DNA of 64,000 bases from Microcoleaceae cyanobacterium (GTDB lineage: Bacteria > Cyanobacteriota > Cyanobacteriia > Cyanobacteriales > Microcoleaceae): assembly GCA_051652765.1 (NCBI GenBank), contig JBOFUV010000148.1, forward strand, positions 49,341 to 113,340, written 5' to 3'. This document shows, in pieces, positions 49,216 to 64,000 of the stretch. The notes below the pieces were generated by a model, which saw only the letters and a program-made list of their open reading frames with translations, searched no databases and was not told the DNA's origin. Made by a program: the position numbers and the translations under genes. Numbering within the stretch: the stretch's first letter is position 1; every line of letters begins with the position of its first letter.

Positions 49216-52200
49216 GTGAGGAAACCTAGTATGTTCAATCCGATTCAGTACCATCGAGTTTGGAAACGATGGCTGCCAATAATGCTGTTTGTCTTGACCT
49301 TGGCAGGGTGTCGGATTTTTAGCGCGTCGGTGCCAGAAAGCACTCCTCTCGTAGTGGTCGCACCCCTTGCCTCCCCTCAATTACCCGATTGGATTGAACA
49401 AATTAGCCCGACTGGAGCCGCAAATTCCCTGAATCAGATTCGGATTTTATTCAGAGATCCGTTGGTTCCCGTCGAACAATTGGACTCTGGCCAACAAAAA
49501 AAGTTGCTGCAAAAATTCCAACTGACACCTGAATTGCCCGGTCAATTTCGCTTTTTAACCCCGCGCATGGTTGGATTCCAAGCAGAACGGGCCTTACCTC
49601 TGGCGACGCGAATTCAGGTGACGTTAAAGACAGGACTAGAAGACCTCAATAGTCATCGTTTAGAACAGGATTTAGCCTGGACATTTAGTACAGAACCAAT
49701 TCAAATCTCCAACTTTCCTGGATTGGAAACCGAGGAAAATCCAGACGCAGGAAAACTGCCGATTGATTTAATGCCTAGTCTCAAATTCAATTCAAATGTT
49801 GAACTTGATTTAAACTCTCTCCAACAGTTCGTTCAACTCCTGTCTGAGAAAATCAAGAAAGCAATTCCGGTTAAGGTTGAACTGAGCAAAAACAAATTTG
49901 ACCCAGACTCTTTGCCACCTCAAACTCAGTTTGACCCCTCAAAGCATACCTGGGAATATCAGATTACCCCCACACAACCCTTAGAAAAAGCCTCAACTTA
50001 TACCTTATCTCTTCAACCTGGGCTTAAATCAATTCAGGGAAATTTAACCAAGGAATTTATTACCTCTAGTCAGCTTCATACCTATGAACCTCTAGCATTT
50101 AAAACCCTAGAATTCTATGGAAAACCTGTTTCAGGTGGAGCCTATGGCAGGTTTGAAAATGGCAGCCCTCAACTCAAGTTTAATAATAAAATTATTGCTC
50201 AATCAGCCCTAGAAAATATTAAAATCAGCCCTGCTTCCCCAAAGAATTCACCTAAACTGGTTCAAGTTTACGGTGATACAGAGATTGTCAGTTTAAATCC
50301 CTGGGCATTGGAGCCAAACATTAACTATCAAATTACTATTGGTGCCGGGTTAAAAGATGAGTTTGATCAAACCTTAGGAAAACCTGTTACCCTCAACTAC
50401 CAAACCGGGGATCTAGCGGCAGACATCTGGGCTCCTTCAGGGTTGAATATTTTTCCAGCCAATCAGGATCTAGAATTAAACGTTTCAACTGTAAACTTAC
50501 CGCAGTCCAAGTATCGAGCGGGCTATGACATTGTGCAGTCTACGGATTTAGTTTATACCGACTCAGCCTATCCCAGACCTGGAAAGAATCTCCTGCCTGA
50601 CCCAGAAGATTGGAGCTCATTCCGAGTCAAAGATTTACCCAATCAAACTCAGGAAACCTCTATTCGACTGAAGCAAAAACTGGGCAAGGAAACTGGATTA
50701 TTAGCCTATGGAATTAAAGCAAGAACGACTTCGTATCTTCCTGAGAAGAATGAAGCACAACCAGAGGCCAAACTCGGAGAAAAACAGTGGAATGAACCCG
50801 TCTTTTATGGCTTAGTTCAACTGACAAACTTAGGGGTATTTGCCCAGTGGTTTCCCGAGTCTGGTCTGGTTCGAGTCAATCATTTAGAAGATGGTTCTGC
50901 GGCTGTTAATACCACGGTTGAAATTTATCAATCCCAACTCGAAGCGACAATATTTCCGACTCCTAAACCCTGTGCAACTGGAACAACAGATGCGACTGGA
51001 CTCTTGAGATTGACGGCGGCTGATTTACAACAATGTATGCAGGGAAATCGCTTTGTGAAACCCCCTGAATTGTTGGTCATTGCTCGGGAAGATCAGGATT
51101 GGGCATTTACCCGAACCTACGGCTACAGCGGTACCTACGGCTATGGCATCTTTGCAGACTGGGAAACCAATCAACCTCAATCCCGAGGCGTGATTTTCTC
51201 CGATCGCCAACTGTATCAACCAGGAGAAAAAGTTGCCCTGACTGGCATTGCCAACTACTTTCAGAATGGTCAACTCAAGTCCGATCGAAACAGCAGCTAC
51301 ACCGTTACCCTGCAAAATCCAAAGGGGGAGAGCAAACTCATTGGTCAATATACAACCAATGAGTTTGCAACATTTTCATCGGAATTTTCCCTGGATTCAA
51401 ATCAGGAACTGGGTGATTATTTTGTGATTGCAAAAGCCAAAAATGGATTGAAAGTAACTGGCAACTTTAGGGTTGCAGAATTTAAGCCTCCAAACTTTAA
51501 AGCAAGCTTAACTCTGGATCGAGAAATTGCTTTAGTTGATGAAACAATTACAGCAACAACCCAGAGTGATTACTTATTTGGTGCGCCTGTCTCTAATGCC
51601 AATGCCAATTACTATGTCACCCGAACTGCAACGGAATTTACTCCCAAAGGATGGGAAAAATATACGTTTGGCCGACAGTGGTTTTGGCCCGAAGAAAAGC
51701 CGTCTCTGTCCAGTGATGTTCTCCAGAAATCTCAGGTGTTAGATCATGCTGGAACAGGGAGTCAAATTGTAAAAATTGCCAAGGATTTACCCTATCCAGC
51801 TCAGTATCGAGTGGACGTTGAAGTATCTGATGTTTCTAACTTATCTGTGACGGATTCAAAAACAGTGATGGCGTTACCTAGCGATCGCTTGATTGGCCTA
51901 AAAAGTCCATTTGTTGCAGAAGCAGGTCAAGAATTTTCCCTAGAATTAATCGTCACTGATCCAACTGGAAAACCCTTAGAAAATGTTGACTTGAACATAG
52001 AGCTACACAAGATGGATTATAGCAGTGTGACACGGGTCGTTGAGGGCGGACAAACCAATCAAAACCAGGTAGAGTACAAAACAGTGGCTCAAGCTCCAGT
52101 GAAATCCAAAGCCACAGAACAAACTGTGAATCTAACTCCGCCTGAACCCGGTTCCTACCGAATTCGTGCTAATTTTACTAACAGTTCTAACGAGGTAACT

Positions 52201-55077
52201 GCAACTGATTTACAAATTTGGGTGACTGGCAATGAATCTGTTTTCTGGGGCAAAGGAAATGAAACAGCCCTCAACTTAAAGTTGGATAAAGCAACCTATC
52301 AAATTGGGGAAACTGCAACGGTTTTAATTCAATCGCCCTATCCAGATGCGGAACTTTATTTTGCGGTGATTCGAGATCGGCCTCTATATGAAAAGTTAAT
52401 TACTGTTCAAGGGGGTGCGCCACAAATTCAGTTTAAAGTCACCCCAGAAATGTTACCCAATGCTGCCGTAGAAGCAGTGCTAGTTCGTAAAGGAGAGGCT
52501 TTATCTACTGTTGAACCGGGCAGTGTTGCCAACTTAGTTCAAACTGGATTTGTTCCCTTTAATATCAATCTCGCACCGAAGTATTTGCAAGTTCAAGTTT
52601 CCCCAGAGAAAGCTGAATTACAACCCGGAACTCAACAGACTCTCAATCTAGAGTTAAAAGATGCAAAAGGTCAGCCTATTCGAGGGCAATTAACCGTTAT
52701 GGTTGTGAATGATGCTGTGTTGCAACTGACTGATTATCGTCCTCCCAATTTAGTCGAAACGGTTTATGCAGACCAATCAATTTCAACTCGATTTAGTGAT
52801 AATCGCCCTGAGGTTGTCCTAGATCAAATGTCATCTCCACTAGCAAAAGGATGGGGTTACGGAGGAGGAATTTCTCAGGCAATTCCAACCAGTTCTTCAG
52901 TCCGCCAAGACTTTCAAGCCCTTGCCTATTACAACGGTTCAGTAATAACTGATGGCAAGGGAACTGCAACGACCAATGATCAAGAAACAATCATTACAGA
53001 CGCTACTGGAAAAGCCAAAATTACCTTTACAATTCCCGACGACTTAACTACTTGGAGAGTTATGGTGGTTGCTAGCGATCGCAATCTGAATTTTGGATCG
53101 GGTGAAACCACATTTACCGCGACAAAAACGTTGCTCGCAAATCCAATTTTGCCTCAGTTTGCTCGCCCTAGAGATCGCCTCTTAGCTGGAGTTTCGGTGA
53201 CCAATAACACAGGCAAAAAAGGAACCCTGGAAATCGCTGGATCTCTGACCGAGGAACTAAAATTCTCTGCGGGGAATGCAACCCATCAAAAACTAAAACG
53301 GGCAGTTTCTGTAGGCACTCAAGCCTACCGTTTTCCGATGGTTGCTCAGACTTCAGGCACAGCCCAGGTTAAATTTGAAACTCGCTTGAAAGATCAAACC
53401 GATGCCTTTGAAGTCCCCCTAGACATTCAGCCTACGATTGTAACGGAACAGGTGATTGAAACCGGGACAACCTCTGATACAGCCACAGTTCCAATTAACA
53501 TTAATCAAATGGTTAATGCTGATGTAGGAGGTTTGGAAATTACGTTGGCAAGTACCCTGGTTCCACAAATCATTGCTCCGGCTGAACAAGTCTTTCAGCA
53601 AACTGATTTTCCTTTCCTAGAACCTTTGGCCAGTAAACTTTTAGTTGCAGCAAACCTGGAACTTTTAAGCAAGAAATACAACCAGAACTTCACCGCCTTT
53701 GACTTAAAAGCTCAGACCAACCAAGCCCTAGAAAAACTTGCCCGACTCCAACGGCCCGATGGCGGCATCAGCCGCGATCCAGAACAGCAAATTTCCGATC
53801 CGATCCTGTCAGCCTATGGGGCAACGGCTTTAGCCAAGGTCGCTCAGGCCGGATTTGTTGTTGATTCAGATCAAATCAATAGTCTCAAAGCTTACCTGAA
53901 ACAAGTTTTAGCGAATCCCGGCAAAGACAATTTCTGTGTCGATTTGATTTGCAAAGCTCAACTGCGATTAGATATTTTGATTGCCCTTGCTGATTTGGGA
54001 TCACAATCCAATGAATTCATTGCCGATATCTATGGATTACGAGATGAATTTGATTTAGTAACTCAGATCAAATTAGCTCGATATTTATCAAACTTGCCAG
54101 AGTGGAAATTAGAGTCTAACGAGCTAGTGAATCAACTGCAAAAAAGTATCTACCAAACAGGCCAAACTGCAACGATTAGTACAGGGACAAATCCCAACTC
54201 CAGCTACAGTTGGATGCGATCGCCAACAGTTTCTCAGGCTGAAGCATTACAGCTTTTTATTGCTCAAAATACTCAACCCGAAAAAACAGATGCGCTCCTG
54301 AAAAGTTTGTTGGATTTGAGGCGGAATGGAGCCTGGGGTAGTACCTATGATAATGCCGCAGCACTAAGCGCTCTAGTGGCCTATGCTCAGAATGAACCGA
54401 CTCCTAGCAAGTTTGAGATTTCCGTACAACTGTCTGGCAAACCCATTGGCTCAACAGAATTTAATGGATACCAAAATTCAGCCTGGAAGTTAACCATTCC
54501 CATGAAAGAATTGCCCCGAGGCAAGACTAACTTAACCCTTCAAACCTCAGGTCAGGGCCGACTGAATTACTTAGTAGCTTATCGCTATCGGTTGGATGGC
54601 AATCAACCCGGACGATTGAATGGATTGCGGGTGGATCGAACCATTCGGGCTGCCAATGAAACTGAAGCCTTATACCGCATGGGGTTAACCTCAAACTCTA
54701 AGCCTTTCCAAGTTAAGCCCGGTCAAGTCTTTGATATTGGCCTGGAAATCATTACTGACCACCCGGTGAATCAAGTGCTGATTACTGACCCCTTGCCTGC
54801 AGGGTTTGAAGCAATTGATGCTAGTTTTCAGACGAGCAACCCCGCAGTTCAGGCCCAGTCCGATAGTTGGGAGATTAACTATCAAACCATTCACCGCGAT
54901 CGCGTTGTCGCCTATGGGGATCGCCTCGAACCGGGAGTCTATCAATTACATTACTTAGTCCGTTCAGTCACGCCGGGAGAGTTCGATTGGCCAGGGGCAG
55001 AGGCCCGCTTGCAATACACCCCAGAAGAATTTGGTCGGAGTGCCTTGACGACCCTTGTGGTTTCTGAACAGCCTTAA
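49216..55077 (+). CDS. Bacterial alpha-2-macroglobulin family lipoprotein
   Basis: Lipobox LAGC; SDRQLYQPGE, FRVAEFKPP, PDDLTTWRV, DPLPAGFE, YLVRSVTPG. Confidence 0.9.
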   Translation: MRKPSMFNPIQYHRVWKRWLPIMLFVLTLAGCRIFSASVPESTPLVVVAPLASPQLPDWIEQISPTGAANSLNQIRILFRDPLVPVEQLDSGQQKKLLQKFQLTPELPGQFRFLTPRMVGFQAERALPLATRIQVTLKTGLEDLNSHRLEQDLAWTFSTEPIQISNFPGLETEENPDAGKLPIDLMPSLKFNSNVELDLNSLQQFVQLLSEKIKKAIPVKVELSKNKFDPDSLPPQTQFDPSKHTWEYQITPTQPLEKASTYTLSLQPGLKSIQGNLTKEFITSSQLHTYEPLAFKTLEFYGKPVSGGAYGRFENGSPQLKFNNKIIAQSALENIKISPASPKNSPKLVQVYGDTEIVSLNPWALEPNINYQITIGAGLKDEFDQTLGKPVTLNYQTGDLAADIWAPSGLNIFPANQDLELNVSTVNLPQSKYRAGYDIVQSTDLVYTDSAYPRPGKNLLPDPEDWSSFRVKDLPNQTQETSIRLKQKLGKETGLLAYGIKARTTSYLPEKNEAQPEAKLGEKQWNEPVFYGLVQLTNLGVFAQWFPESGLVRVNHLEDGSAAVNTTVEIYQSQLEATIFPTPKPCATGTTDATGLLRLTAADLQQCMQGNRFVKPPELLVIAREDQDWAFTRTYGYSGTYGYGIFADWETNQPQSRGVIFSDRQLYQPGEKVALTGIANYFQNGQLKSDRNSSYTVTLQNPKGESKLIGQYTTNEFATFSSEFSLDSNQELGDYFVIAKAKNGLKVTGNFRVAEFKPPNFKASLTLDREIALVDETITATTQSDYLFGAPVSNANANYYVTRTATEFTPKGWEKYTFGRQWFWPEEKPSLSSDVLQKSQVLDHAGTGSQIVKIAKDLPYPAQYRVDVEVSDVSNLSVTDSKTVMALPSDRLIGLKSPFVAEAGQEFSLELIVTDPTGKPLENVDLNIELHKMDYSSVTRVVEGGQTNQNQVEYKTVAQAPVKSKATEQTVNLTPPEPGSYRIRANFTNSSNEVTATDLQIWVTGNESVFWGKGNETALNLKLDKATYQIGETATVLIQSPYPDAELYFAVIRDRPLYEKLITVQGGAPQIQFKVTPEMLPNAAVEAVLVRKGEALSTVEPGSVANLVQTGFVPFNINLAPKYLQVQVSPEKAELQPGTQQTLNLELKDAKGQPIRGQLTVMVVNDAVLQLTDYRPPNLVETVYADQSISTRFSDNRPEVVLDQMSSPLAKGWGYGGGISQAIPTSSSVRQDFQALAYYNGSVITDGKGTATTNDQETIITDATGKAKITFTIPDDLTTWRVMVVASDRNLNFGSGETTFTATKTLLANPILPQFARPRDRLLAGVSVTNNTGKKGTLEIAGSLTEELKFSAGNATHQKLKRAVSVGTQAYRFPMVAQTSGTAQVKFETRLKDQTDAFEVPLDIQPTIVTEQVIETGTTSDTATVPININQMVNADVGGLEITLASTLVPQIIAPAEQVFQQTDFPFLEPLASKLLVAANLELLSKKYNQNFTAFDLKAQTNQALEKLARLQRPDGGISRDPEQQISDPILSAYGATALAKVAQAGFVVDSDQINSLKAYLKQVLANPGKDNFCVDLICKAQLRLDILIALADLGSQSNEFIADIYGLRDEFDLVTQIKLARYLSNLPEWKLESNELVNQLQKSIYQTGQTATISTGTNPNSSYSWMRSPTVSQAEALQLFIAQNTQPEKTDALLKSLLDLRRNGAWGSTYDNAAALSALVAYAQNEPTPSKFEISVQLSGKPIGSTEFNGYQNSAWKLTIPMKELPRGKTNLTLQTSGQGRLNYLVAYRYRLDGNQPGRLNGLRVDRTIRAANETEALYRMGLTSNSKPFQVKPGQVFDIGLEIITDHPVNQVLITDPLPAGFEAIDASFQTSNPAVQAQSDSWEINYQTIHRDRVVAYGDRLEPGVYQLHYLVRSVTPGEFDWPGAEARLQYTPEEFGRSALTTLVVSEQP

Positions 55078-55130
55078 ACTTGACTGGGTCGTATTCACGT
55101 TTGAGCTACCCTTGGTCACTCCTGCCATAT

Positions 55131-55224
55131 GGAACCCATTTGGTCTCTTAGCGAGAGAAGCAAGACTGAAAAAATGAAGTATGCAAGCAGCTTGACAGAC
55201 AAAGAGTGGGACATAATCGAACCC
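55131..55224 (+). mobile_element. IS5-family left-end remnant
   Basis: GGAACCCATTTG possible terminal IR, then ATG 55174 MKYASSLTDKEWDIIEP resembling IS5 transposase N-terminus; abuts truncated array repeat. Confidence 0.6.
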
Positions 55225-55317
55225 CGTCGGTGAAGCCCCATAAAGTTTTCGGGTGTTGGGCGAGGACACGATTCCCTACGGGAGAGGCTGCACAACGATT
55301 TCGTCAAGGATGGGTTT
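55225..55317 (-). repeat. Array repeat R0 (truncated; 23-nt insertion)
   Basis: Minus strand reads KPILDEI[ins]DRVLAQHPKTLWGFTD, then cut by IS remnant. Confidence 0.85.
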
Positions 55318-55660
55318 AAGCTGTTGCATAGCCTGAGTATTGGCGTAAATAAGGCGGTTGAAATCCAATGACAATATCTTCTTTGGGGATACCTCGCTCA
55401 ACAAGATCTTGACCAATATCTAATTCAGTATTGTTAATCTGAATCCAAATTTTTTCGTTTTTAATATCTAAATGAATTGAACAGCCGTAGACTCTCTCTT
55501 TTTTATCCCAGCCGATCGCAACGACCTGGTAATGATCGTGTTCGGTGTCAAAAACGGTTTGAATCTCAATATCACCATAGGATGGTTTGTAGGCAGCATA
55601 TTGCTCCAGCAGTTGCTTGATGATGGTTCGATAAGTTTGGAGTTTTTCTAGACTTGCCAT
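55316..55660 (-). CDS. xisI: XisI family protein
   Basis: FDTEHDHYQ, GW, HLDIKNEKIWIQ, GIPKEDIVIGF. Confidence 0.9.
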   Translation of the reverse strand: MASLEKLQTYRTIIKQLLEQYAAYKPSYGDIEIQTVFDTEHDHYQVVAIGWDKKERVYGCSIHLDIKNEKIWIQINNTELDIGQDLVERGIPKEDIVIGFQPPYLRQYSGYATA

Positions 55661-56061
55661 AAAACGATTACCTCATTTTCAATGTCATAAACGAAAAGTT
55701 CAAGTTCATACTGTTGAATAACCATGCGCGGAAATTCTTTTTGAAAGAATGTTTTATAGGCGACATCTGGAACAGCAAGAAATAATTTCCGTTCTGGATC
55801 GGCCACTTTTAATGCCACACGATAGTTAATGAATTGCCCGATCGCGAGATGGAAATCAGCAAGGCTAGAGGTGTTGATAAAGCTTTTGATTTCGACGGCA
55901 ATCTTTTTGCCATCGCGTTCGGCGGCGAGTAGTTTTTCTGCACCGAGGTCAATGAAGAAGTCTACGCCACCTACTTTAAGGAAAAGCGGATCATCGGTAA
56001 TTTGCCAGCCGTCTTTAATCAGGGCAGTTTTGACCACATCATGGAACAGATCTTTTGCCAT
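55648..56061 (-). CDS. xisH: XisH family protein (PD-(D/E)XK nuclease-like)
   Basis: AKDLFHDVVKTALIKDGW, IDLGAEK, IAVEIKSF, AIGQF. Confidence 0.9.
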   Translation of the reverse strand: MAKDLFHDVVKTALIKDGWQITDDPLFLKVGGVDFFIDLGAEKLLAAERDGKKIAVEIKSFINTSSLADFHLAIGQFINYRVALKVADPERKLFLAVPDVAYKTFFQKEFPRMVIQQYELELFVYDIENEVIVLWQV

Positions 56062-56180
56062 TACTCGTCACCTCCATTGTCTTTGCCCATGCGGTACTTA
56101 ATATCGTAGTTGATGAGGTCGTCGAGTTCTTGGTCGGTGAAGCCCCCCGAAATCTTTTGATGTTGGGCGAGGACGCGATC
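56061..56180 (-). repeat. Array repeat R1
   Basis: DRVLAQHQKISGGFTDQELDDLINYDIKYRMGKDNGGDE*; TAATG overlap with xisH start. Confidence 0.92.
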
Positions 56181-56406
56181 ATGAGATTTCTGCAAGCCGC
56201 CCCATCTCGACGCTGACAGCATCAAAGCGGTTATCACTAGGTCGATAGGATAAAAGTTCCATCCCAATGGGTTCGCCCGTCGTTTCATCTTTGATTAGAA
56301 TGACTCCATCTCCCAGTTCTGTTGCAATTTGATTTTTTCGCGGAGGTTGCCAAAAAACTGTTAGCAACTCCATTTCGGGTTCGTAGTAGATTTTTACTTG
56401 TGCCAT
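56179..56406 (-). CDS. DUF2283-like putative antitoxin
   Basis: ATG 56406 MAQVKIYYEPEMELLTVFW...GVILIKDETTGEPIGMELL. Confidence 0.7.
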   Translation of the reverse strand: MAQVKIYYEPEMELLTVFWQPPRKNQIATELGDGVILIKDETTGEPIGMELLSYRPSDNRFDAVSVEMGRLAEIS

Positions 56407-56699
56407 AGGGGTTCTCCTTCTTTGATTGCATCGGTTTGGTAAGCCGTGATCAGAAATCCATCTCCATTTAACCGTCGGGCAACGCCAACAACCCATCGCT
56501 TTTCTTTCAAAACCAAATAAAACAGCAATAGGTTTGGATCGCGGCTACTGCGACGAATTTCATCGGGATTGGTCAGTGCTTGTCTGACTTCGGCTTCGAG
56601 ATCGGCAATGTCTGGATGTTTGACGATCAGTTTTTGCCAATATTCTTCTGAGGTGCGAACGGTGAAGTTGAGGGGAGTGAGGATTTCAAATTTACTCAT
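56394..56699 (-). CDS. DUF4258/RelE-like putative toxin
   Basis: WQKLIVKHP...PDEIRRS...GFLITAY; overlaps DUF2283 partner. Confidence 0.65.
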   Translation of the reverse strand: MSKFEILTPLNFTVRTSEEYWQKLIVKHPDIADLEAEVRQALTNPDEIRRSSRDPNLLLFYLVLKEKRWVVGVARRLNGDGFLITAYQTDAIKEGEPLWHK

Positions 56700-57043
56700 G
56701 AGTCATCACCTCTGGGTGAAACCAATGGTTCAATATAATTTAATAGTTGAGGTAAGTTTTCGTTGATGACTGTCCAGACTTCATCGAGATCGACTTCATC
56801 ATAATCATGGGTGATGACATCACGCATTCCAGCAATTTCTTTCCAGGGAATGGTAGGATGCTGTTCCCTAAAATCTTTTGAGAGTCGTTTGGTCGCTTCG
56901 CCGATGATGGTGATGCGGCGCAAAATCGCATCTTGTTTTTCGATGTTGGCTGCTAAGTTAGCGAAATTAACTGCTTCAACATATCGAAGAATGAGTTTGA
57001 TGGCTTCTACAATGTCGATTAAGGTTTCTCGATCACGTGACAT
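56696..57043 (-). CDS. HEPN (DUF86/HepT-like) RNase toxin
   Basis: IIGEATKRLS, RX4HXY motif RDVITHDY. Confidence 0.9.
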   Translation of the reverse strand: MSRDRETLIDIVEAIKLILRYVEAVNFANLAANIEKQDAILRRITIIGEATKRLSKDFREQHPTIPWKEIAGMRDVITHDYDEVDLDEVWTVINENLPQLLNYIEPLVSPRGDDS

Positions 57044-57371
57044 AAATTACCTCGGCAGCATCTAGAATATTCTTACGCCGAAGCCAATTATGGCTTTGTT
57101 CAATAGCTTTTTTGCTGACTAAATCAACATCTCGATGCAGCAGGGATGAAAGTTCTTCTTGCATTCTAATTTTTTCAAAAAGTCCTCGTTTGGCAGTGGG
57201 TCGATACGAAACGAGAACATCAATGTCGCTATCAGCATGAAAGTCATCTCGCAGAACCGAGCCAAAAAGTGCTAGTTCAGATACTTGCCAACGCTGACAA
57301 AATTCCATCAGTTGTTCCGGAGTAATTCCCAGTCGGGATTGAAGTCGAGAGTTTAGTTGAAGTGTAGTCAT
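57033..57371 (-). CDS. MNT minimal nucleotidyltransferase antitoxin (MntA-like)
   Basis: GSX10DXD motif FGSVLRDDFHADSDID, VDLV. Confidence 0.9.
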   Translation of the reverse strand: MTTLQLNSRLQSRLGITPEQLMEFCQRWQVSELALFGSVLRDDFHADSDIDVLVSYRPTAKRGLFEKIRMQEELSSLLHRDVDLVSKKAIEQSHNWLRRKNILDAAEVIYVT

Positions 57372-57490
57372 CAGTCATCACCTCCGTTATCTCTGCCCAT
57401 GCGGTACTTAATATCGTAGTTGATGAGGTCGTCGAGTTCTTGGTCGGTGAAGCCCCATAAGGTTTTTGGGTGTTGGGCGAGGACGAGATC
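57371..57490 (-). repeat. Array repeat R2
   Basis: DLVLAQHPKTLWGFTDQELDDLINYDIKYRMGRDNGGDD*; TGATG overlap with MNT start. Confidence 0.92.
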
Positions 57491-57520
57491 GTTCGCTTAT
57501 CAATGTTTCATACCTTCGTT

Positions 57521-57733
57521 CTAGTACGCGATCGCCTTTTGAGCAATCATATACTCAATGGCTTGTGGGTTATCAATCCGTTTGGAAGCCTGAAGAATTT
57601 CGATACCAACGACATTTCTACTAGAGTCAAAGTCCAGGATAATGCCGGGGGTTTCTTCGTCACTTTCTTCAATCTCCACATCCTTGAGGGTAATCCGAAT
57701 CACATCTACTTCAGGGTCATATTTGATTTTCAT
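57521..57733 (-). CDS. DUF2283 family putative antitoxin
   Basis: MKIKYDPEVDVIRI...GIILDFDSSRNVVGIEILQAS; ATG 57733. Confidence 0.85.
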   Translation of the reverse strand: MKIKYDPEVDVIRITLKDVEIEESDEETPGIILDFDSSRNVVGIEILQASKRIDNPQAIEYMIAQKAIAY

Positions 57734-57822
57734 GGATTCCTCCAATGTTTTTTAATTTGGCTTGTGCGATAAACGGTTACAACTATTGCGGGGTCAATGG
57801 TGGTATTGATGAAGACACGAAT
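57730..57822 (-). pseudogene. 3-prime remnant of DUF4258-like toxin
   Basis: Manual translation IRVFINTTIDPAIVVTVYRTSQIKKHWRNP*, ATGA overlap with DUF2283 start; no 5-prime part. Confidence 0.7.
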
Positions 57823-58042
57823 CACTCATTAGCCGCCAGGGAAGTTCAGGCGCTAAGGTTTGAACATCAGCAGGAATATTAATCGCTGCTTCACCAATAA
57901 TAATTAGGTCATAAAGCACGGCCTTAACGATGGTTTCATCTTGACTAAATTGATCAAAACTCATGCCAGCAGTCCGCATCTGAATACTATCAATGGCGTT
58001 GAGAATATCTTGAATCCGTGCTTTGGCAGATCTAGAAGACAT
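57794..58042 (-). pseudogene. Truncated HEPN (DUF86) toxin lacking RX4H motif
   Basis: IIIGEAA...LPWRLMSD then unrelated SCLHQYHH*; 82 aa versus 112-115 aa for the other three HEPNs. Confidence 0.75.
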
Positions 58043-58322
58043 GAATGGCTTCCTCCAAGATCGGTTGTCTTAGATGTTCCTTCAGGGCATCGGCTGTACC
58101 TAGGTCAACGGGACATTGGAGGAGATCTTCAAGATAGTGCTTGATCCGAAAAAATTCAAAAAAGCCAATAGATTCATCCAGTTCCACTAAAATATCCACA
58201 TCACTTTGATGCTTAGCTTGGTCACGAGCAACCGAACCAAAAAGATTGAGAGACTTAACTCCTAAACTTCGTAATTCTTCCTGATGAGATTGAACTAAAT
58301 TTAATGCATCTGACTGTTTCAT
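58032..58322 (-). CDS. MNT minimal nucleotidyltransferase antitoxin
   Basis: LFGSVARDQAKHQSDVDILV, VDL. Confidence 0.9.
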   Translation of the reverse strand: MKQSDALNLVQSHQEELRSLGVKSLNLFGSVARDQAKHQSDVDILVELDESIGFFEFFRIKHYLEDLLQCPVDLGTADALKEHLRQPILEEAIHVF

Positions 58323-58340
58323 AATTTTGCCTTTTTCCTT

Positions 58341-58456
58341 TTAACATTCACTATCACGTTCCATGCGGTACTTAATATCGTAGTTGATGAGGTCGTCGAG
58401 TTCTTCGGTGGTGAATCCCCATAAGGTTTTTGGGTGTTGGGCAAGGACGCGATCGC
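58341..58456 (-). repeat. Array repeat R3 (starts at exact HIP1 58449-58456)
   Basis: DRVLAQHPKTLWGFTTEELDDLINYDIKYRMERDSEC*. Confidence 0.92.
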
Positions 58457-58466
58457 CATGCATAAT

Positions 58467-58805
58467 CTATTCCTCGGCTGGTAAAAATGGAGTGATGTAT
58501 GCCAAAAGTTCAGGAATTTTGGTTTTAAGCACTTCCCAGACTAAATCCAACTTAACCTCATCATAATCATGGACTAGCCGATCGCGCATTCCGGCAATTT
58601 TTCTCCACTCAACTTCTGAATACTGATCGCGAAACTCTGGTGAAAGTCGTTTTACGACTTCACCAAGAATTGTAATTTCATACAAGATTGCTAGTTGTGT
58701 TCTCTCGTCATTTTGAAATTCTACTTCGCTCATGTTGTCAGTTAATCGGAGAATAGTTTGACAAAGCTTGGCAATGTCAAGCAGATAGGACTTGTCCTGA
58801 TTCAT
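58467..58805 (-). CDS. HEPN (DUF86/HepT-like) RNase toxin
   Basis: ILGEVVKRLS, RDRLVHDY. Confidence 0.9.
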   Translation of the reverse strand: MNQDKSYLLDIAKLCQTILRLTDNMSEVEFQNDERTQLAILYEITILGEVVKRLSPEFRDQYSEVEWRKIAGMRDRLVHDYDEVKLDLVWEVLKTKIPELLAYITPFLPAEE

Positions 58806-59130
58806 AGATGACCTGTGCGGTATTCAAGATATTGTTTCGGCGAATCCAGTTATGGCTATCGACTATAGAACGCTTTTCTATAAGGTCAACTTCGCGCCCA
58901 ACCATATCTTCTAGCTGGTACTCCATGCTGACTAAGTCCATCAGGCTCAGGTGGGGATTTGATTGATGATCGAAAATTATCAAGATATCGATGTCACTGT
59001 CCGGTTTAAAGTCATCTCGCAAAATAGAACCAAAGAGCGCAAGCTCAAGAATATGGTGTTGCTTGCAAAAGCCTACAAGTTGTTCTGGCGTTATGTTAAG
59101 TCGATGGTAAATTAATTTTTTGTCTATCAT
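58777..59130 (-). CDS. MNT minimal nucleotidyltransferase antitoxin
   Basis: ATG 59130 after AGGAG; LFGSILRDDFKPDSDID. Confidence 0.88.
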   Translation of the reverse strand: MIDKKLIYHRLNITPEQLVGFCKQHHILELALFGSILRDDFKPDSDIDILIIFDHQSNPHLSLMDLVSMEYQLEDMVGREVDLIEKRSIVDSHNWIRRNNILNTAQVIYESGQVLSA

Positions 59131-59165
59131 CTGCTTTTCTCCTAATACTTTTGTCTTGTTATTTT

Positions 59166-59283
59166 TTAACTTTTGCGATCGCGCCCCATGCGGTATTTGA
59201 TATCGTAGTTGATGAGGTCGTCGAGTTCTTCGGCGGTGAAGCCCCATAAGGTTTTTGGGTGTTGGGCAAGGACGTGATCGATT
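59166..59283 (-). repeat. Array repeat R4 (HIP1 at 59175-59182)
   Basis: IDHVLAQHPKTLWGFTAEELDDLINYDIKYRMGRDRKS*. Confidence 0.92.
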
Positions 59284-59289
59284 CTAAGT

Positions 59290-59625
59290 TTAGGCAATTG
59301 CAAATCCGGTATGCGGTCGAATTTCAGGTTCATGGAAGCCAAGCACAATATCTTCTTTGGGAATGCCTGCTTTAAGGAGTTCATCGGTAATACCATCTTC
59401 GGTGCCATCATATTGCACCCAAACTTTTCCATTGACAATTTCAAGGTGCAGTAAAATACTATGCAAATGGCGCTGGTGATCCCAACCTTCAGACAAAATA
59501 ATATACTGGTCAGTTTCAGGATCAAAGGCAGCACGATTTTTGACGTTGACGTTGGCATAGGTAATGTCAGCATAAGGTTTGAGAACATTACGGATAATTT
59601 GCCGATAAGTATTTAGGCGATCCAT
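59290..59625 (-). CDS. xisI: XisI family protein
   Basis: FDPETDQY, GW, KVWVQYDGTEDGI, GIPKEDIVLGF. Confidence 0.9.
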   Translation of the reverse strand: MDRLNTYRQIIRNVLKPYADITYANVNVKNRAAFDPETDQYIILSEGWDHQRHLHSILLHLEIVNGKVWVQYDGTEDGITDELLKAGIPKEDIVLGFHEPEIRPHTGFAIA

Positions 59626-60029
59626 CGAGTGATAACCTCCTGATCAGGGTTAAATGTAAACAGCTTTAAAACTTGATTTTCTAAAAGAATTTGTCCAACT
59701 TCTTGTTCAAATAGCTTTAAGAAGCTGGCATCACGAATTGCTAGGTAGAGGGTGCGTTCAGGGTCAATTCGGCTCAGAATATTTTGATATAGAATGTATT
59801 GACCGAGAGCCATTTCAAGATCGCGAATTTCAGAAGGGCTGATAAAGCTTTTGATTTCGACGGCGATCTTCTGGGTATCTTTTTCAGCGGTGATGAGTTT
59901 TTCACCTGCCAGGTCAATGAACAGATCTTTTCTGCCAATTTTTAGGTTATAAGGATCATGGGTGATTATCCAACCATCCTTAATCAGAGCTTGTTTACAA
60001 CTATCATGATAGATGTCTTTTGCTGGCAT
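59613..60029 (-). CDS. xisH: XisH family protein
   Basis: MPAKDIYHD, IDLAGEK, IAVEIKSF, ALGQY; ATG 60029. Confidence 0.9.
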   Translation of the reverse strand: MPAKDIYHDSCKQALIKDGWIITHDPYNLKIGRKDLFIDLAGEKLITAEKDTQKIAVEIKSFISPSEIRDLEMALGQYILYQNILSRIDPERTLYLAIRDASFLKLFEQEVGQILLENQVLKLFTFNPDQEVITRWIA

Positions 60030-60034
60030 AGAAC

Positions 60035-60178
60035 TCAATCTTCCCCTCCATTGTCTCTGCCCATGTGGTACTTAATATCGTAGTTGATGAGGTCGTCGAG
60101 TTCTTCAGCGGTGAAGCCCTCCAAAAAATTTTAGTGTTGGGCAAGGACGCGATCGCTCTCACCAATGATGGGTTTTGA
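60035..60178 (-). repeat. Array repeat R5 (HIP1 60149-60156; internal stop)
   Basis: SKPIIGESDRVLAQH*NFLEGFTAEELDDLINYDIKYHMGRDNGGED*. Confidence 0.92.
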
Positions 60179-60526
60179 TTAAGCGATCGCAAACCCAGTG
60201 TAAGGTCGAATAGATAGTTCTTTGAAGCCCAAAACGATCTTATCTTTGGGAATTCCAGCAGTCATGAGATCGCTAGCAATACCATAGTCTGTTCCATCTC
60301 GTTGAATCCAAATTTTTTCATTGATAATCTCAATGTCAATCAAACAGCCGTGAATCCGAGAATGATCTTTTTTCCAGCCATTAGATATAACCAGATAGCG
60401 ATCATGAACAGGATCAAATACCGTTTTATTGCTTAGCTCTAAAATGTCAGGATTGGCATATTGGCGAGTTGTAAATTCTTCCAATAAGCTTCGGATTATT
60501 TTGCGATAATTTTCTAGTTCATCCAT
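60179..60526 (-). CDS. xisI: XisI family protein
   Basis: FDPVHDRY, GW, KIWIQRDGTDYGI, GIPKDKIVLGF. Confidence 0.9.
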   Translation of the reverse strand: MDELENYRKIIRSLLEEFTTRQYANPDILELSNKTVFDPVHDRYLVISNGWKKDHSRIHGCLIDIEIINEKIWIQRDGTDYGIASDLMTAGIPKDKIVLGFKELSIRPYTGFAIA

Positions 60527-60936
60527 TGGATAATTTCCTCCTGTTCAACATTAAAAACCAGTAATTTTAGACGGTGATTTTCTAGCAAAACTTTACCAAT
60601 CGAAGTAGGGTCTTCAAATAGATCGCGGAAGGTTGCATCCCGAATTGCCAGAAAAAGTTCTCTATCAGTATCAGTACGAACAAGCAGATCTTGATAAAGA
60701 ATAAATTGCCCTAGAGCATTTTTTAGATCTTCAACATCTGACAGTCCAACAAAGCTTTTGATTTCGACAGCAATACGCTGATCGTCTTTCTGGGCAGCGA
60801 CCAGTTTTTCAGCACCCAGATCAATAAACAAATCTTTGGAACCCCATCGAAGAAAGTAAGGATCATGAGTGATTGTCCAACCGTCCTTAATCAGAGCTTG
60901 TTTGCAGTTGTCGTGATATATATCTTTGGCTGGCAT
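60514..60936 (-). CDS. xisH: XisH family protein
   Basis: MPAKDIYHD, IDLGAEK, IAVEIKSF, ALGQF. Confidence 0.9.
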   Translation of the reverse strand: MPAKDIYHDNCKQALIKDGWTITHDPYFLRWGSKDLFIDLGAEKLVAAQKDDQRIAVEIKSFVGLSDVEDLKNALGQFILYQDLLVRTDTDRELFLAIRDATFRDLFEDPTSIGKVLLENHRLKLLVFNVEQEEIIQWMN

Positions 60937-60941
60937 AGGAT

Positions 60942-61095
60942 TTAATCCTCCCCTCCATTATCTCTGCCCATGCGGTATTTGATGTCGTAATTGATGATGA
61001 AGTCGAGTTCTTCGGTGGTGAAGCCGTAATGTTGGGCAAGGACGCGATTCTCCATCGGAGAGGCTGCGCCAACGCTTTCGTCAGTGATGGTTTTA
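60942..61095 (-). repeat. Array repeat R6 (HIP1 split by 24-nt insertion)
   Basis: KTITDES[ins]DRVLAQHYGFTTEELDFIINYDIKYRMGRDNGGED*. Confidence 0.92.
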
Positions 61096-61119
61096 ACATT
61101 TGGATTATCATTATTTTAA

Positions 61120-61458
61120 TCATCCAGGTTTTTCCAAAATCGATTGAATTTCTGGCAAAATATCAGGCAAGTTAATATGAATCACATTCCAGAGAATATC
61201 AAAATCCAACTCGTCATAATCATGAATAACGACATCTCTTAAACCAGCCATTTGTCGCCAGGGAATCGTTGGATGTTGCTCACGAAACTCATTAGATAGA
61301 CGCTTAGTTGCTTCTCCAATCACGATCAGTCGATATAAAATAGCAGCTTGTTTTTCGTCATCTTCTTGTAGATTATTTCGATTAATGTCTTGGGCATACA
61401 GTAATGTTTGTTGGATAGCTGTAGAAATATCCATTAATGCCTGTTTATCTCGCAGCAT
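61120..61458 (-). CDS. HEPN (DUF86/HepT-like) RNase toxin
   Basis: VIGEATKRLS, RDVVIHDY. Confidence 0.9.
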   Translation of the reverse strand: MLRDKQALMDISTAIQQTLLYAQDINRNNLQEDDEKQAAILYRLIVIGEATKRLSNEFREQHPTIPWRQMAGLRDVVIHDYDELDFDILWNVIHINLPDILPEIQSILEKPG

Positions 61459-61783
61459 AGATGACCTCCGCTGAATCTAGAATCACTTGACGACGGAGGG
61501 CATTGTGGCTATTGATAATACTTTGATGAGTCAATAAATCGACTGGTCGCTGAAAAAGGGTAGACAGTTCTTCTCGCATTTGGATAAACTCTAAGCCCCA
61601 AGAGTGATGAGGAAAGAAGCCAACTAAGATGTCCACATCACTGTTAGCGGAAAAGTCATCTCGCAGAACTGACCCAAAGAGAGCGAGTTCTGCAACTTGC
61701 CATCGCTGGCAAAATTCAGCAAGCTGTTCTGGGGTAATTCCTAGTCGTGATTGAAGTCTAGAATTTAGTTGAAGTGTAGCCAT
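61445..61783 (-). CDS. MNT minimal nucleotidyltransferase antitoxin
   Basis: LFGSVLRDDFSANSDVD. Confidence 0.9.
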   Translation of the reverse strand: MATLQLNSRLQSRLGITPEQLAEFCQRWQVAELALFGSVLRDDFSANSDVDILVGFFPHHSWGLEFIQMREELSTLFQRPVDLLTHQSIINSHNALRRQVILDSAEVIYAAR

Positions 61784-61881
61784 TACTCATCACCTCCTGT
61801 ATCTCTGCCCATGCGGTATTTGATGTCGTAGTTGATGATGAAGTCGAGTTCTTCGTCGGTGAAGCCGTATTGGTGAATCAT
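61783..61881 (-). repeat. Array repeat R7, forming a 32-aa mini-ORF between RM gene and first cassette
   Basis: MIHQYGFTDEELDFIINYDIKYRMGRDTGGDE*; ATGA overlap with RM stop, TAATG overlap with MNT start. Confidence 0.9.
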
Positions 61882-64000
61882 GGGATTAAACCCCGTTCGA
61901 CATCGCGGTAGGCGTTGAGGGCGGCTTGTTTGGTGGGGGCGGGGACGATGGGAAAGGTGCTGAGGATATGGGCAAATTCGATTTCGGTGAGCTGATAGAG
62001 ATGGGCGATGATGCCATCGAGTTCGGCGCGGAGCTTGGCGCGATCGACTTCGTTGGTAATATGACCCTCATTAGCCCTCACCCTAAATCCCTCTCCCAAA
62101 GAGGGAGAGGGACTTTGAAATTCCGGTTCCCCTTCGCCCCCCTTGGGAGAAGGGGTTAGGGGATGAGGGCAAACCTCCGCCCACAGGTCGTCAAATTCGG
62201 GGGTGGTGCAGATCAGCTTGGCAGCGCGATCGACGATTGCGGCGAACCATTTGTCGCCCTCCTGAAGCCGAGGAACAGGAAGTTGATAAAGGAAGAAAAA
62301 CGTCAGGTTAGTTGTAACTCGTTGGCGAATCAAATAGTCAATAATAAATGAGTTGAGAATGCAACAGAAGAATAATTCTGACTGGTAACTGATCTGTTCT
62401 TTAGAATCTCGAATTATTACTGTAGGTATTTTATGATTGCAAAATACTTGTCTTGGGAGCATTGTTATAATTGCAGTTCTCTGATCAGTATTTCTAGCAA
62501 TATCTCTAAATCCAAGCCGATAGGTTTGGTAACTTAGTATTTGCCCAAGATCTTCTTCACCGCGTTTAATTAATGCTGTTCTAGCTTCGCTTTCATCTAA
62601 CCAATACTTAGGTTGTCCCCACTGATGGGTGAACTGGTGAATCATCTTGCCTTCGTAGAGCGGCAGTCGCCCCGGTGCTGGCTCCGGCTTGAACAGATGA
62701 CTGTCACTCGTCATATTCAACTCTTGGCACAGTTTCAGATTCCACTTGCCGTCAATCTTTTCGCCCAGCAAGGGGAATTGCAGCATCTTTTGGGCAATGG
62801 TGATGTCGATCGGTTGCTTAAACTCCATCACCGACAGCGAATCTGGCGATAGCTTGCGGATGAGCGGCACATCTAAGTAAATATCATCAACTGCTGGAAA
62901 TTGAGCAAGTTCAGCAATATCATGACGCATAAAGCGCACTGGGAAGGCTTGAGTATTGCCCCCTTTTTCAAAAGTCAAAATTACAAACTTAAAGCGACTA
63001 TCCACACCCTCAAAAATTGCCTTGCGATTTTCAAAGCAAAATAAGCCTGTCACTTCAGTTTGAGAAAACAGCATTTCTCGTAACTGCTTTGTGCCCAAAT
63101 CCGTATAAATTCCGCTAGGAATAACAATGCCACATTCTCCACCCTTTCGTAATAGGTTAAAGCATTGCTCAGTGAATAAGAAATAAAGGTTGACTTTTCT
63201 TGCAACACTTTTTCCACCCATTTCAGAGCGCTGATTGTGGTACTGTTCAGCTTTTTTAAAATACTGGCTAACATAAGGAAACTGGCTACAATAACTTAGC
63301 CAAGCTTCAGAAATTTCAGGATCTTGTAAGAGTTGATCGCGCTGCTTTTCCCAAGACTTAATGTCCAGTTTCTTCTTGCGAATTAGGTTATCATATCGCT
63401 GAAAGAACTCCTTCTCATCCGTTTGAAATACTTCCCACGGTGGATTCGTAATAATCGCATCAAACCCACCCCGCTCAAACACCTTATCAAAGTGGTAGCC
63501 CCAGTGAAACGGCTCCAGGGCATTGATATCAGCAATGGTTAGCAGTCGTTTTTGGGGTTTGCCCGTCAGTTGGGCTTGTTCATACTTAATCCGCAAGCGA
63601 TTGCTAAATTCATCCAGCAAGAGTTGATTCAGTTTGGCTTGGGATTCACGGTTGAGCTTATCGATGTGATCCCGCAGTTGTAATAACCGCGTTTCCTGGG
63701 GTAGTTCCTCATCCTCTTTCTGGAAAGCGTGTTTTTTATAGAGTTCAATACCGGCATTTTTATCCTCCAGAATTTGTTGATAAGCCGAAGCCGCTAACGG
63801 CTGCAACAAATTCCCTTGCAAAACGCCCTCACCCCCAGCCCCTCTCCCAGAACGGGAGAGGGGAGCAGAAAGGCGATCGAATCCTTCGGCATCCACTCGG
63901 ATCAGTCCAATTAACGAGTTCCCCGCCATGATGTTGAAATCAATATTCGGCAGCGGTTCTAGATCATTGACGGTTTTTGCTGAAGAGACTAACGCCAAAA
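61878..64000 (-). CDS. Type IIG (Eco57I-like) RM enzyme, MTase plus specificity region (5-prime part outside window)
   Basis: PLPNIDFNIMAGNSLIG, GFDAIITNPPW, FENRKAIFEGVDSRFKF, PLYEGKMIHQF, RAELDGIIAHLY. Confidence 0.85.
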   Translation of the reverse strand, partial: LALVSSAKTVNDLEPLPNIDFNIMAGNSLIGLIRVDAEGFDRLSAPLSRSGRGAGGEGVLQGNLLQPLAASAYQQILEDKNAGIELYKKHAFQKEDEELPQETRLLQLRDHIDKLNRESQAKLNQLLLDEFSNRLRIKYEQAQLTGKPQKRLLTIADINALEPFHWGYHFDKVFERGGFDAIITNPPWEVFQTDEKEFFQRYDNLIRKKKLDIKSWEKQRDQLLQDPEISEAWLSYCSQFPYVSQYFKKAEQYHNQRSEMGGKSVARKVNLYFLFTEQCFNLLRKGGECGIVIPSGIYTDLGTKQLREMLFSQTEVTGLFCFENRKAIFEGVDSRFKFVILTFEKGGNTQAFPVRFMRHDIAELAQFPAVDDIYLDVPLIRKLSPDSLSVMEFKQPIDITIAQKMLQFPLLGEKIDGKWNLKLCQELNMTSDSHLFKPEPAPGRLPLYEGKMIHQFTHQWGQPKYWLDESEARTALIKRGEEDLGQILSYQTYRLGFRDIARNTDQRTAIITMLPRQVFCNHKIPTVIIRDSKEQISYQSELFFCCILNSFIIDYLIRQRVTTNLTFFFLYQLPVPRLQEGDKWFAAIVDRAAKLICTTPEFDDLWAEVCPHPLTPSPKGGEGEPEFQSPSPSLGEGFRVRANEGHITNEVDRAKLRAELDGIIAHLYQLTEIEFAHILSTFPIVPAPTKQAALNAYRDVERGLIP
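62074..62170. repeat. Composite MITE-like hairpin element inside RM coding frame
   Basis: Ends gccctca...tgagggc; two internal hairpins; encodes PHPLTPSPKGGEGEPEFQSPSPSLGEGFRVRA. Confidence 0.75.
63825..63866. repeat. GC-rich hairpin short dispersed repeat within RM coding frame
   Basis: gccctcacccccagcccctctcccagaacgggagaggggagc; encodes APLSRSGRGAGGEG. Confidence 0.7.

Follow-up and report, generated by a model that had tools for sequence, protein, structure and literature searches.

A 64,000-nt stretch of the draft genome of a Microcoleaceae cyanobacterium (GenBank assembly GCA_051652765.1, contig JBOFUV010000148.1, positions 49,341 to 113,340 of the forward strand; hereafter the window) carries, on its minus strand, an array of small gene cassettes behind a type IIG restriction-modification (RM) gene. 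The RM gene (61878–63998) is present as its C-terminal 706 codons; the contig and the window end together inside it, and its 5' part lies outside. Its assignment to type IIG, made in a preliminary description of this DNA, was upheld by Pfam (Eco57I, N6_Mtase) and by PADLOC (REase_MTase_IIG PDLC03613, 158 bits). The array (55226–61881) comprises eight copies of a direct repeat of approximately 125 nt, numbered R7 to R0 from the RM gene outward, and seven cassettes, with a unit size of 825–1310 nt. That conserved repeats and unrelated cargo form a cassette array behind the RM gene had been recognized earlier, and repeat searching, alignment and Pfam annotation agreed with this. The repeat search returned one family of 7 copies of 122 nt (61–100% identity to the reference copy) and a second of 6 copies of 47 nt, which added a distal half copy at 55226–55272. 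All eight copies could be aligned, two of them (R7 and R0) being half copies. Searching the window's own genome (158 contigs, 99.97% complete) placed the repeat in the array only: the eight array copies had E ≤ 2.3e-12, and the other 4 of the 12 matches had E values of 3.75–7.01.

The preliminary description was right that a conserved direct repeat is present, and missed what it is. The repeat, which we call the tail, is the 3' coding end of a widespread type IIG RM family of approximately 1100 aa, namely its last 38–46 or so codons, the stop codon and a ribosome-binding site. Translated on the minus strand, the copies read (D)RVLAQH, then Y or PKTLW, then GFTxEELD, then FI or DL, and finally INYDIKYRMGRDNGGDE before a stop codon, and proteins of the RM family end in DRVLAQHYGFTDEELDFIINYDIKYRMGRDNGGDE before theirs. 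When the 41-aa translation of R2 was compared with longer proteins, 26 of 31 candidates matched at E ≤ 0.01. Eco57I was found in 18 of these 26, mostly together with MmeI_Mtase, and most of the 18 were of about 1000–1130 aa. In the five full or partial RM proteins that we read, the match was the extreme C-terminus. One relative, P0008, fits the PADLOC model REase_MTase_IIG PDLC03628 over its full length (1624 bits), and relatives such as P0008 have the architecture of that type, a single polypeptide of about 1100 aa that combines nuclease, gamma-type methylase (Eco57I/MmeI_Mtase) and recognition parts and has an INYDIKYRMG tail at its end.

The tails still bear the marks of coding sequence. 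Across seven of them the variable sites fell 5, 5 and 9 by codon position (of 22 each), and the 135 pairwise codon differences divided into 71 synonymous and 64 non-synonymous. R2 and R1 read through intact, R5 contains an in-frame TAA, and the ends of R4 and R3 have diverged. As R5 is interrupted and most copies lack a start codon, the tail copies are not genes; a small peptide gene, considered as an identity for the repeat, was ruled out by the stop in R5, by the inconsistent start codons and by the match to the RM C-terminus. In the final tail codons a Shine-Dalgarno sequence is written (..GGAGGTGAxxxTAATG, with GGAGG inside the last codons), and the tail stop codon overlaps the ATG of the next gene or precedes it by a few bases. 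Where true RM tails have a Tyr codon, many internal tails carry instead a 15-nt insert of the pattern YCAAAA...GG, which is strongly diverged between copies while the flanking tail sequence stays conserved. It occurred in 11 of the 34 tails with a recoverable 5' half, among them R1–R5 (for example 57445–57459) and, by alignment, R0; carriers outside the window include the loci L209, L214, L215 and L219. R6 and R0 share a different, 24-nt insert, which is present in a metagenome protein as well.

Reading outward from the RM gene, with all features on the minus strand, tails placed by alignment and translation and cassettes by Pfam, the array begins with R7 (61783–61875), the 3' half of a tail lying out of frame past the RM stop codon (61878–61880). 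It reads HQYGFTDEELDFIINYDIKYRMGRDTGGDE up to its stop and ends TAATG on the start of the MNT gene of cassette 1 (61120–61783; MNT 61445–61783, PF01909; HepT 61120–61458, PF01934). R6 (60941–61094) is a full tail of the RM-like type (AQHYGFT..DFIINYDIKY), its 24-nt insert lying past a KTITDES stretch, and precedes cassette 2 (60179–60936; XisH 60514–60936, XisI 60179–60526, full length to PF08814 and PF08869). R5 (60040–60175), the full tail with the in-frame TAA, has the 15-nt linker variant and is followed by cassette 3 (59290–60029; XisH 59613–60029 from its ATG, XisI 59290–59625). R4 (59158–59285) and R3 (58333–58460) are full tails with the PKTLW linker and diverged 3' ends, and stand before cassette 4 (58467–59130; MNT 58777–59130, HepT 58467–58805) and cassette 5 (57521–58322), respectively. 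R2 (57371–57496) is a full tail ending TGATG on the MNT start of cassette 6 (56179–57371), and R1 (56061–56190), full and with the linker variant, ends TAATG on the XisH start of cassette 7 (55316–56061; XisH 55648–56061, XisI 55316–55660). The last copy, R0 (55226–55317), placed by the repeat families and alignment, is only the 5' half of a tail (KPILDEI, the 24-nt insert and NRVLAQHPKTLWGFTD) and breaks off past GGCTTCACCGAC. A terminator-like hairpin (55208–55225), recognized by consensus match only, starts exactly at the R0 breakpoint. Terminator-like sites in the region were not enriched (9, against 5.4 ± 2.6 in shuffled sequence), and promoter-like sites numbered 10 (14.4 ± 3.8 in shuffles). 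The cassettes are co-oriented, each starting on, or a few nt from, the stop codon of the preceding tail, and these tightly packed genes probably form a single operon that is expressed from the RM side.

Cassettes 5 and 6 are composite. Cassette 5 holds an MNT gene (58032–58322), a truncated HepT gene (57794–58042) and a DUF2283 gene (57521–57745). Homology of its MNT/HepT part to other arrays ends at 57821, where homology to DUF4258/DUF2283 begins, and metagenome contigs diverge at the same base; we therefore place there a deletion joint that fused two cassettes, in line with the earlier remark that this module was broken. In cassette 6 an MNT/HepT pair (57033–57371 and 56696–57043) is followed by a DUF4258-like (56394–56699) and a DUF2283-like gene (56179–56406). 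Between the pairs lies what had been called a vestige (56685–56712); its 28 nt match R2 and R7 at their 3' ends, together with the start codon behind them, which shows the term to be apt. Two further tails have been lost from the array by deletion. Nine two-gene modules are present within seven repeat-bounded cassettes; the earlier count of nine toxin-antitoxin (TA) modules between repeats was right in the number of modules, while the repeats bound seven units and XisH/XisI are not established TA pairs.

Pfam recognized four MNT/HepT pairs (one HepT, of 82 aa, being the truncated one), three XisH/XisI pairs and one DUF2283 protein in the cargo. The remaining pair, of 101 aa and 75 aa, gave matches to DUF4258 (E 0.023) and DUF2283 (E 0.088) that were weak and below cut-off. 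No alignment was obtained between the 75-aa ORF (56179–56406) and the DUF2283 protein (57521–57745), so that the label DUF2283-like rests on the Pfam E value of 0.088 only. The four MNT/HepT pairs have the gene layout of the MntA/HepT (type VII) TA systems, with adjacent, overlapping PF01909 and PF01934 genes, and the motifs RX4H and GSX10DXD, which we take to be those of HepT and MntA, can be read in the window translations. Against the NCBIfam equivalog models the cassette 6 pair, the sole pair scanned, scored 46.5 bits (MntA) and 46.4 bits (HepT), both under the cut-off of 60; the pairs are members of the Pfam families and not equivalogs. All three XisH/XisI pairs are adjacent, overlapping and full length (PF08814/PF08869, E 1e-37 to 1e-57). 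Amino acid identity between paralogs within the window was 24–69% for MNT, 21–52% for HepT, 47–63% for XisH and 39–50% for XisI.

Single cassettes of the window are shared with other genomes at much higher identity. The MNT and HepT proteins of cassette 1 are 88% and 89% identical to those of the first cassette behind an intact RM gene in Cyanobacterium UBA999, and the DNA match runs from R7 through R6 (86% over 948 nt). The XisH and XisI of cassette 3 (87% and 90%) and the MNT and HepT of cassette 6 (88% and 83%) have counterparts in one array, that of genome G171, where the two cassettes stand in the opposite order. The DUF4258-like ORF of cassette 6 is 85% identical to an ORF that starts on the stop codon of an intact 1114-aa RM gene in G174. 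Comparison of cassette content and order between genomes, set beforehand as a test of the array, showed that both differ, and cassettes are shared and reordered between genomes. In four metagenome sequencing runs, contigs carried single cassettes at 90–99% identity, tail-joined in other orders; these joints are weak evidence, because the contigs are short and belong to other organisms, and some may stem from assembly across repeats. No single run contained as many as half of the words sampled from the array.

These comparisons contradict the idea that a single unit of tail plus two-gene module was duplicated locally in tandem and diverged in place, or that the array is an assembly artefact. 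The head-to-tail units are of similar size, and the genome is a draft of 158 contigs. The cargo, though, comes from unrelated families, and paralogous cassettes are 21–69% alike within the window yet 83–90% identical to cassettes of other genomes. An artefact would not account for the same architecture in the single-contig genomes G338 and G073 and in independent metagenome contigs; moreover, the repeats differ by 6–39%, so that an assembler would neither collapse nor invent them. We regard duplication or artefact as having next to no likelihood.

Tails were found by six-frame search in 11 of 401 sampled genomes of the phylum, the window genome included. A DNA search for the repeat in 60 relatives gave no match in any. 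The array of G338 has a split RM gene and four tails, in the order tail, DUF559, tail, PIN pair, tail, HicAB, tail, HicBA; that of G226 has an intact 1192-aa RM gene, a MazF pair and a tail, then moaC. In G171 a DUF4258-like pair is followed by three degenerate tails, standing before HicAB, MNT/HepT and XisHI in turn, and then by tldD. UBA999 has its RM gene and four tails, and an Aphanocapsa array (2 tails reported) runs RM, HicAB, tail, XisHI. The RM gene of G338 (L039, 9014–12843) falls into two ORFs, of 1054 aa and 186 aa, so arrays persist behind broken RM genes; the G171 array is without any RM gene.

When genome contigs were scanned with a degenerate motif of the tail, at least 124 stretches in many phyla matched, and 80 loci were fetched; the counts that follow refer to these 80. 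Two or more tails were present at 12 loci, on 10 contigs, and such loci include Poribacteria, Bacteroidales, Nitrospirota, Nitrospinota and Chloroflexota. Between loci, duplicated tails ranged in length from 27 to more than 111 nt. Among 82 distinct tail sites, 50 end a long ORF, 24 are detached and 8 lie too close to the locus edge. In metagenomes, a scan for the tail variant DDLINYDIKY gave 19 loci on 17 contigs, 13 of the 17 with 2–5 tails, and a pattern with the PKTLW linker gave no matches.

What follows the stop codon of this RM family is highly variable across phyla, and it is of defence type. Genes starting at the tail stop belong to RhuM, Bro-N, AIPR, Fic, Schlafen/AlbA_2, AbiJ, Mrr, DUF1016/YhcG and DUF3800, and a Shedu-like protein, MNT, DUF2283 and DUF6883/DUF4926 were also met in this slot. 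At 32 of 78 sites the next ORF starts between -10 and +5 nt from the tail stop. In many loci (L081, L087, L092, L094, L107, L109, L119, L121, L131 and L143) a conserved DprA-like gene of 150–240 aa, with weak PF02481 matches and a PADLOC resemblance to PsyrA and ShosA, closes the slot, and in six metagenome arrays (L204, L208, L209, L211, L214 and L218) the last tail leads directly into it. Variable cargo between the same two conserved flanks, as in a defence hotspot, is therefore seen in relatives, from the RM gene to the DprA-like gene; the distal flank is missing in the window, and a search with one query found no DprA-like gene in the window genome.

Neither of two same-genus genomes, G001 and G002, has the RM gene or the array, and comparison with same-genus genomes yielded no clean empty site or contig join. 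Synteny with G002 breaks directly past a large gene convergent with the array, and the matching contig of the window genome carries housekeeping genes. The convergent gene is a 1953-aa ORF on the plus strand (49216–55077), and since synteny with G002 (L055) ends approximately 110 nt past its stop codon, the distal end of the array coincides with a rearrangement breakpoint.

The proximal end of the array appears altered too. The available, C-terminal part of the window RM protein matches PDLC03613 and not PDLC03628; its 706 residues show 28% identity to P0008 over 190 residues and finish in a C-terminal helix of their own. A 75% identical RM protein of 1207 aa in the complete cyanobacterial genome G073 matches PDLC03628 over its first 360 or so residues and PDLC03613 over the remainder, and a 3'-half tail remnant like R7 lies directly past this ortholog as well. 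Both genes therefore look like chimeras of a PDLC03628-lineage N-terminus and a PDLC03613-lineage methylase/recognition half, for the window as judged through its G073 ortholog. The methylase/recognition half of an ancestral PDLC03628-type gene would have been replaced by a segment with its own stop codon, leaving the old tail R7 behind as an untranslated remnant; R7 would be a half copy because of this swap. With the distal end cut within R0, the array of the window would have lost both of its native ends. Target-recognition domains have been described to move between RM and methyltransferase genes (Furuta and colleagues; PMC3983042). The two chimeras resemble that process, which alters enzyme specificity and would account for the orphaned R7, not for the cassette array.

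Two copies of a short GC-rich palindromic element, 82% alike and in frame, lie inside the RM ORF (62074–62111 and 63825–63862), where they encode, for example, SPSLGEGFRVRA and SRSGRGAGGEG. In G002 these two stretches have 27 matches, whereas the remainder of the RM gene has none; similar inserts occur in the G073 ortholog. The element appears to be a small dispersed repeat whose presence within coding sequence is tolerated.

Since the preliminary description had proposed an integron-like mechanism, the tails were compared with integron recombination sites, taking the definitions of attC, IntI and CALIN from PMC4889954. The comparison did not support the proposal. Folding the six full repeats to a consensus gave a structure (-9.26 kcal/mol, 17 pairs, 0 compensatory) that was not attC-like, and 12 single-strand DNA folds, covering both strands, were no better than shuffled sequence (z -1.36 to +0.85). 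No inverted repeat recurred among the repeat copies. An Rfam scan of 54000–64000 found nothing in the repeats and only chance-level microRNA/sRNA matches inside the RM gene. With the IntI model (NCBIfam TIGR02249) the window's own draft genome, whose contig ends inside the RM gene, gave eight weak matches, the best of 63.9 bits against a cut-off of 265. No integrase is nearby, in agreement with the preliminary description. The best match (C74:39585–39925) is a stop-broken fragment covering only the N-terminal part of the model (63.9 and 53.8 bits). On the same contig as the array and approximately 72 kb from it lies a 348-aa tyrosine-recombinase-like ORF (C148:31918–32751), with 51 bits against the same cut-off. 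The array is not an integron.

Much about the array nevertheless recalls integrons, including sedentary chromosomal ones and CALINs: short, co-oriented, tightly packed cassettes, repeats of approximately 60–140 nt, a platform gene at one end, cargo rich in TA and anti-phage genes, and cassette content and order that vary between strains. Toxin-antitoxin cargo is reported to be typical of chromosomal integrons (PMC13108822 and a preprint, 10.1101/2024.07.02.601686), and integrons are reported from Cyanobacteria (PMC4889954). A CALIN, an attC cluster without integrase whose cassettes are moved by an IntI encoded elsewhere, would fit this resemblance. The repeat is, however, RM coding sequence and not an attC hairpin; it precedes the cargo, overlaps its start codon and supplies its ribosome-binding site, unlike attC; and the exchange looks homologous and not site-specific. 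Already contradicted by the fold, inverted-repeat, Rfam and IntI results, an integron remnant is very improbable here.

With the repeat identified as the 3' coding end of the RM gene, the mechanism is more likely to be recombination at this reiterated end. On the sequence comparisons above we consider it likely that homologous or homology-anchored recombination at the tail built the array and reshuffled it; the tail would also supply the translation start context of the cassettes. The variable slot past the RM stop would, in cyanobacteria, have grown into RM-(tail-cassette)n-tail. A cassette flanked by two tails would have homology on both sides to any tail-bearing genome, with further homology from the RM body and, where present, the DprA-like gene, so that ordinary homologous recombination could insert, delete, replace or reorder it. 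DNA uptake or exchange between chromosome copies would come first, and a dedicated integrase would not be required. First-time insertion could proceed by recombination anchored by one-sided homology, for which reason the duplications would vary in length (27 to more than 111 nt). Each tail would hand its ribosome-binding site and stop-start overlap to the gene behind it, and the conserved Shine-Dalgarno sequence and overlap would couple translation of that gene.

Three features of the tails favor recombination spread over the tail as opposed to one fixed crossover. First, the 5' boundaries differ, R0, R5 and R6 reaching KPIIDEI, R1 and R4 reaching EI, and R2 and R3 reaching DR. Second, the variants are mosaic: R6 has the RM-like DFI form, yet its 3' end is common to R5. 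Third, over 32 tails (496 pairs), similarity of the downstream cargo correlated with the last 24 nt of the tail (r 0.42); the correlation fell to 0.14 for the 33 nt before these and was absent in the middle (-0.01), and similarity of the upstream cargo correlated with the 5' part only (0.17). The power of this analysis is low, as the middle segment is nearly invariant, and related arrays, and hence pairs, are not independent.

Several further points weigh against this account. The whole case is one of sequence comparison. The start of R7 and the end of R0 nearly coincide in the tail, around GGCTTCACCGAC, and several foreign tails start there too, a coincidence that a fixed crossover or cleavage site would also predict. 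At this same position, near GGCTTCACC, sits the diverged 15-nt insert of many internal tails, for which recombination does not account. The right-hand homology does not exceed 125 nt, a short stretch for RecA to recombine efficiently. The contig end inside the RM gene leaves room for a recombinase beyond it, and the tyrosine-recombinase-like ORF stands on the same contig. Finally, the tails are well conserved (the middle is approximately 89% identical on average), better than the cargo; given the stop in R5 and the few start codons, they are therefore not simply decaying scars, and a function or frequent gene conversion has to be assumed.

The coincident breakpoints raise the question of a dedicated enzyme, a site-specific recombinase or sequence-specific nuclease encoded elsewhere, moving units of 3' half, cargo and 5' half by way of a fixed mid-tail site near GGCTTCACC and the linker. 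Were this so, the array would be a functional integron analog with a new kind of site. Apart from the R7 start, the R0 end and the insert exactly there, such an enzyme would explain why G338 and several metagenome tails also start at YGF or GFT, and why the XisI stop codon is joined to KPIIDEI alike in the window and in one metagenome array; the neighbors beyond the contig end are, besides, unseen. Yet no recombinase gene adjoins any annotated array, and the complete or near-complete G338, G226 and G073 show housekeeping genes or helicases alongside. The truncation of R7 is common to G073 and is explained by the swap of the RM C-terminal half. Duplicated tails differ in length between loci, as do the 5' boundaries within the window; the linkage of the 3' half to downstream cargo is lost inside that half and not at its edge; and the tails share no inverted repeats. 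A dedicated enzyme is in our view unlikely.

The distribution of tail types along the arrays bears on another explanation, that the tails are passive scars. New RM 3' portions, each with a gene, would repeatedly have pushed the old tail and cargo downstream, as in rhs/cdiA, with neither later shuffling nor any function of the tail. In keeping with this, the RM-proximal R7 and R6 are of the RM-like type and the more distal tails of the DDL type, UBA999, L209 and L219 have DFI at the tail of the RM gene itself and DDL in later tails, and the first cassette past the RM gene is the same in the window and UBA999. Decay, however, does not rise with distance from the RM gene, as R2 and R1 are intact while R5 has a stop and R4 and R3 diverged ends; DFI tails come after DDL tails in L205 and L218; and arrays with common cassettes differ in cassette order. 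The tails are mosaic, and they are far better conserved than neutral scars of cassettes that are 21–69% identical would be. We think it quite improbable that the tails are passive scars.

Returning to recombination at the reiterated tail, we tentatively raise, as something possible though doubtful, that the tail has been selected as an adaptor for docking and expression and is a counterpart of attI/attC that works without a recombinase. Every genome that carries the family could then capture genes lying between two tails, stack and reshuffle them, and translate them by coupling. DprA loads RecA onto incoming single strands, and under this reading the DprA-like gene may promote recombination at the locus, while XisH/XisI would be mobile TA-like defence cassettes rather than dedicated excision factors.

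Parts of the organization have parallels in known systems. Orphan rhs-CT/rhsI and cdiA-CT/cdiI arrays, to which the concept of C-terminal displacement applies, likewise repeat the conserved 3' fragment of the main gene before each downstream module, lack an integrase and have repeats that permit recombination between modules; their module is a toxin domain fused in frame plus an immunity gene, whereas here each tail has a stop codon of its own and separate genes make up the cargo. Tandem genomic islands located at the 3' end of a tRNA or protein-coding gene also arise by successive insertions that copy the 3' end of the target gene as direct repeats; they depend on a tyrosine or serine integrase and a defined att core, whereas here there is no integrase and the boundaries vary. 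Variable defence genes occur in or beside RM operons, for example anticodon nucleases inside type I RM loci, and defence hotspots similarly offer a hypervariable slot flanked by two conserved genes, in this case the type IIG RM and DprA-like genes. To our knowledge, and by a literature search, no hotspot has been reported in which the tail of the flanking gene recurs between successive cargo genes, as it does here. A full-text literature search, with most subscription journals outside it, found no description of cassette arrays delimited by RM tails.

The XisH/XisI pairs form a subject of their own. They have so far been known from heterocyst DNA excision (the fdxN element), and the same literature search found no report of them as TA pairs. 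In the arrays (window 55316–56061, 59290–60029 and 60179–60936; L047, L144, L204, L205, L206, L214, L215, L217 and L218) they behave like HepT/MNT, HicAB, VapBC and MazEF cassettes and travel between genomes alongside them. Their company suggests a selfish or defence role beyond fdxN excision, a proposal that a literature search met in no title or abstract.

If recombination at the tail is borne out, integron-like cassette arrays could be built with only a conserved gene end as a portable homology arm, and TA and anti-phage genes would have a simple route to spread and accumulate beside restriction systems in many phyla. The relevance to the study of defence islands and mobile elements would be high, and naturally transformable cyanobacteria offer a direct way to test the idea. 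In practice the tail also serves as a search handle, as detached copies flag variable defence slots and new candidate defence genes, and the arrays place XisH/XisI among the mobile two-gene cassettes that travel with HepT/MntA, HicAB, VapBC and MazEF.

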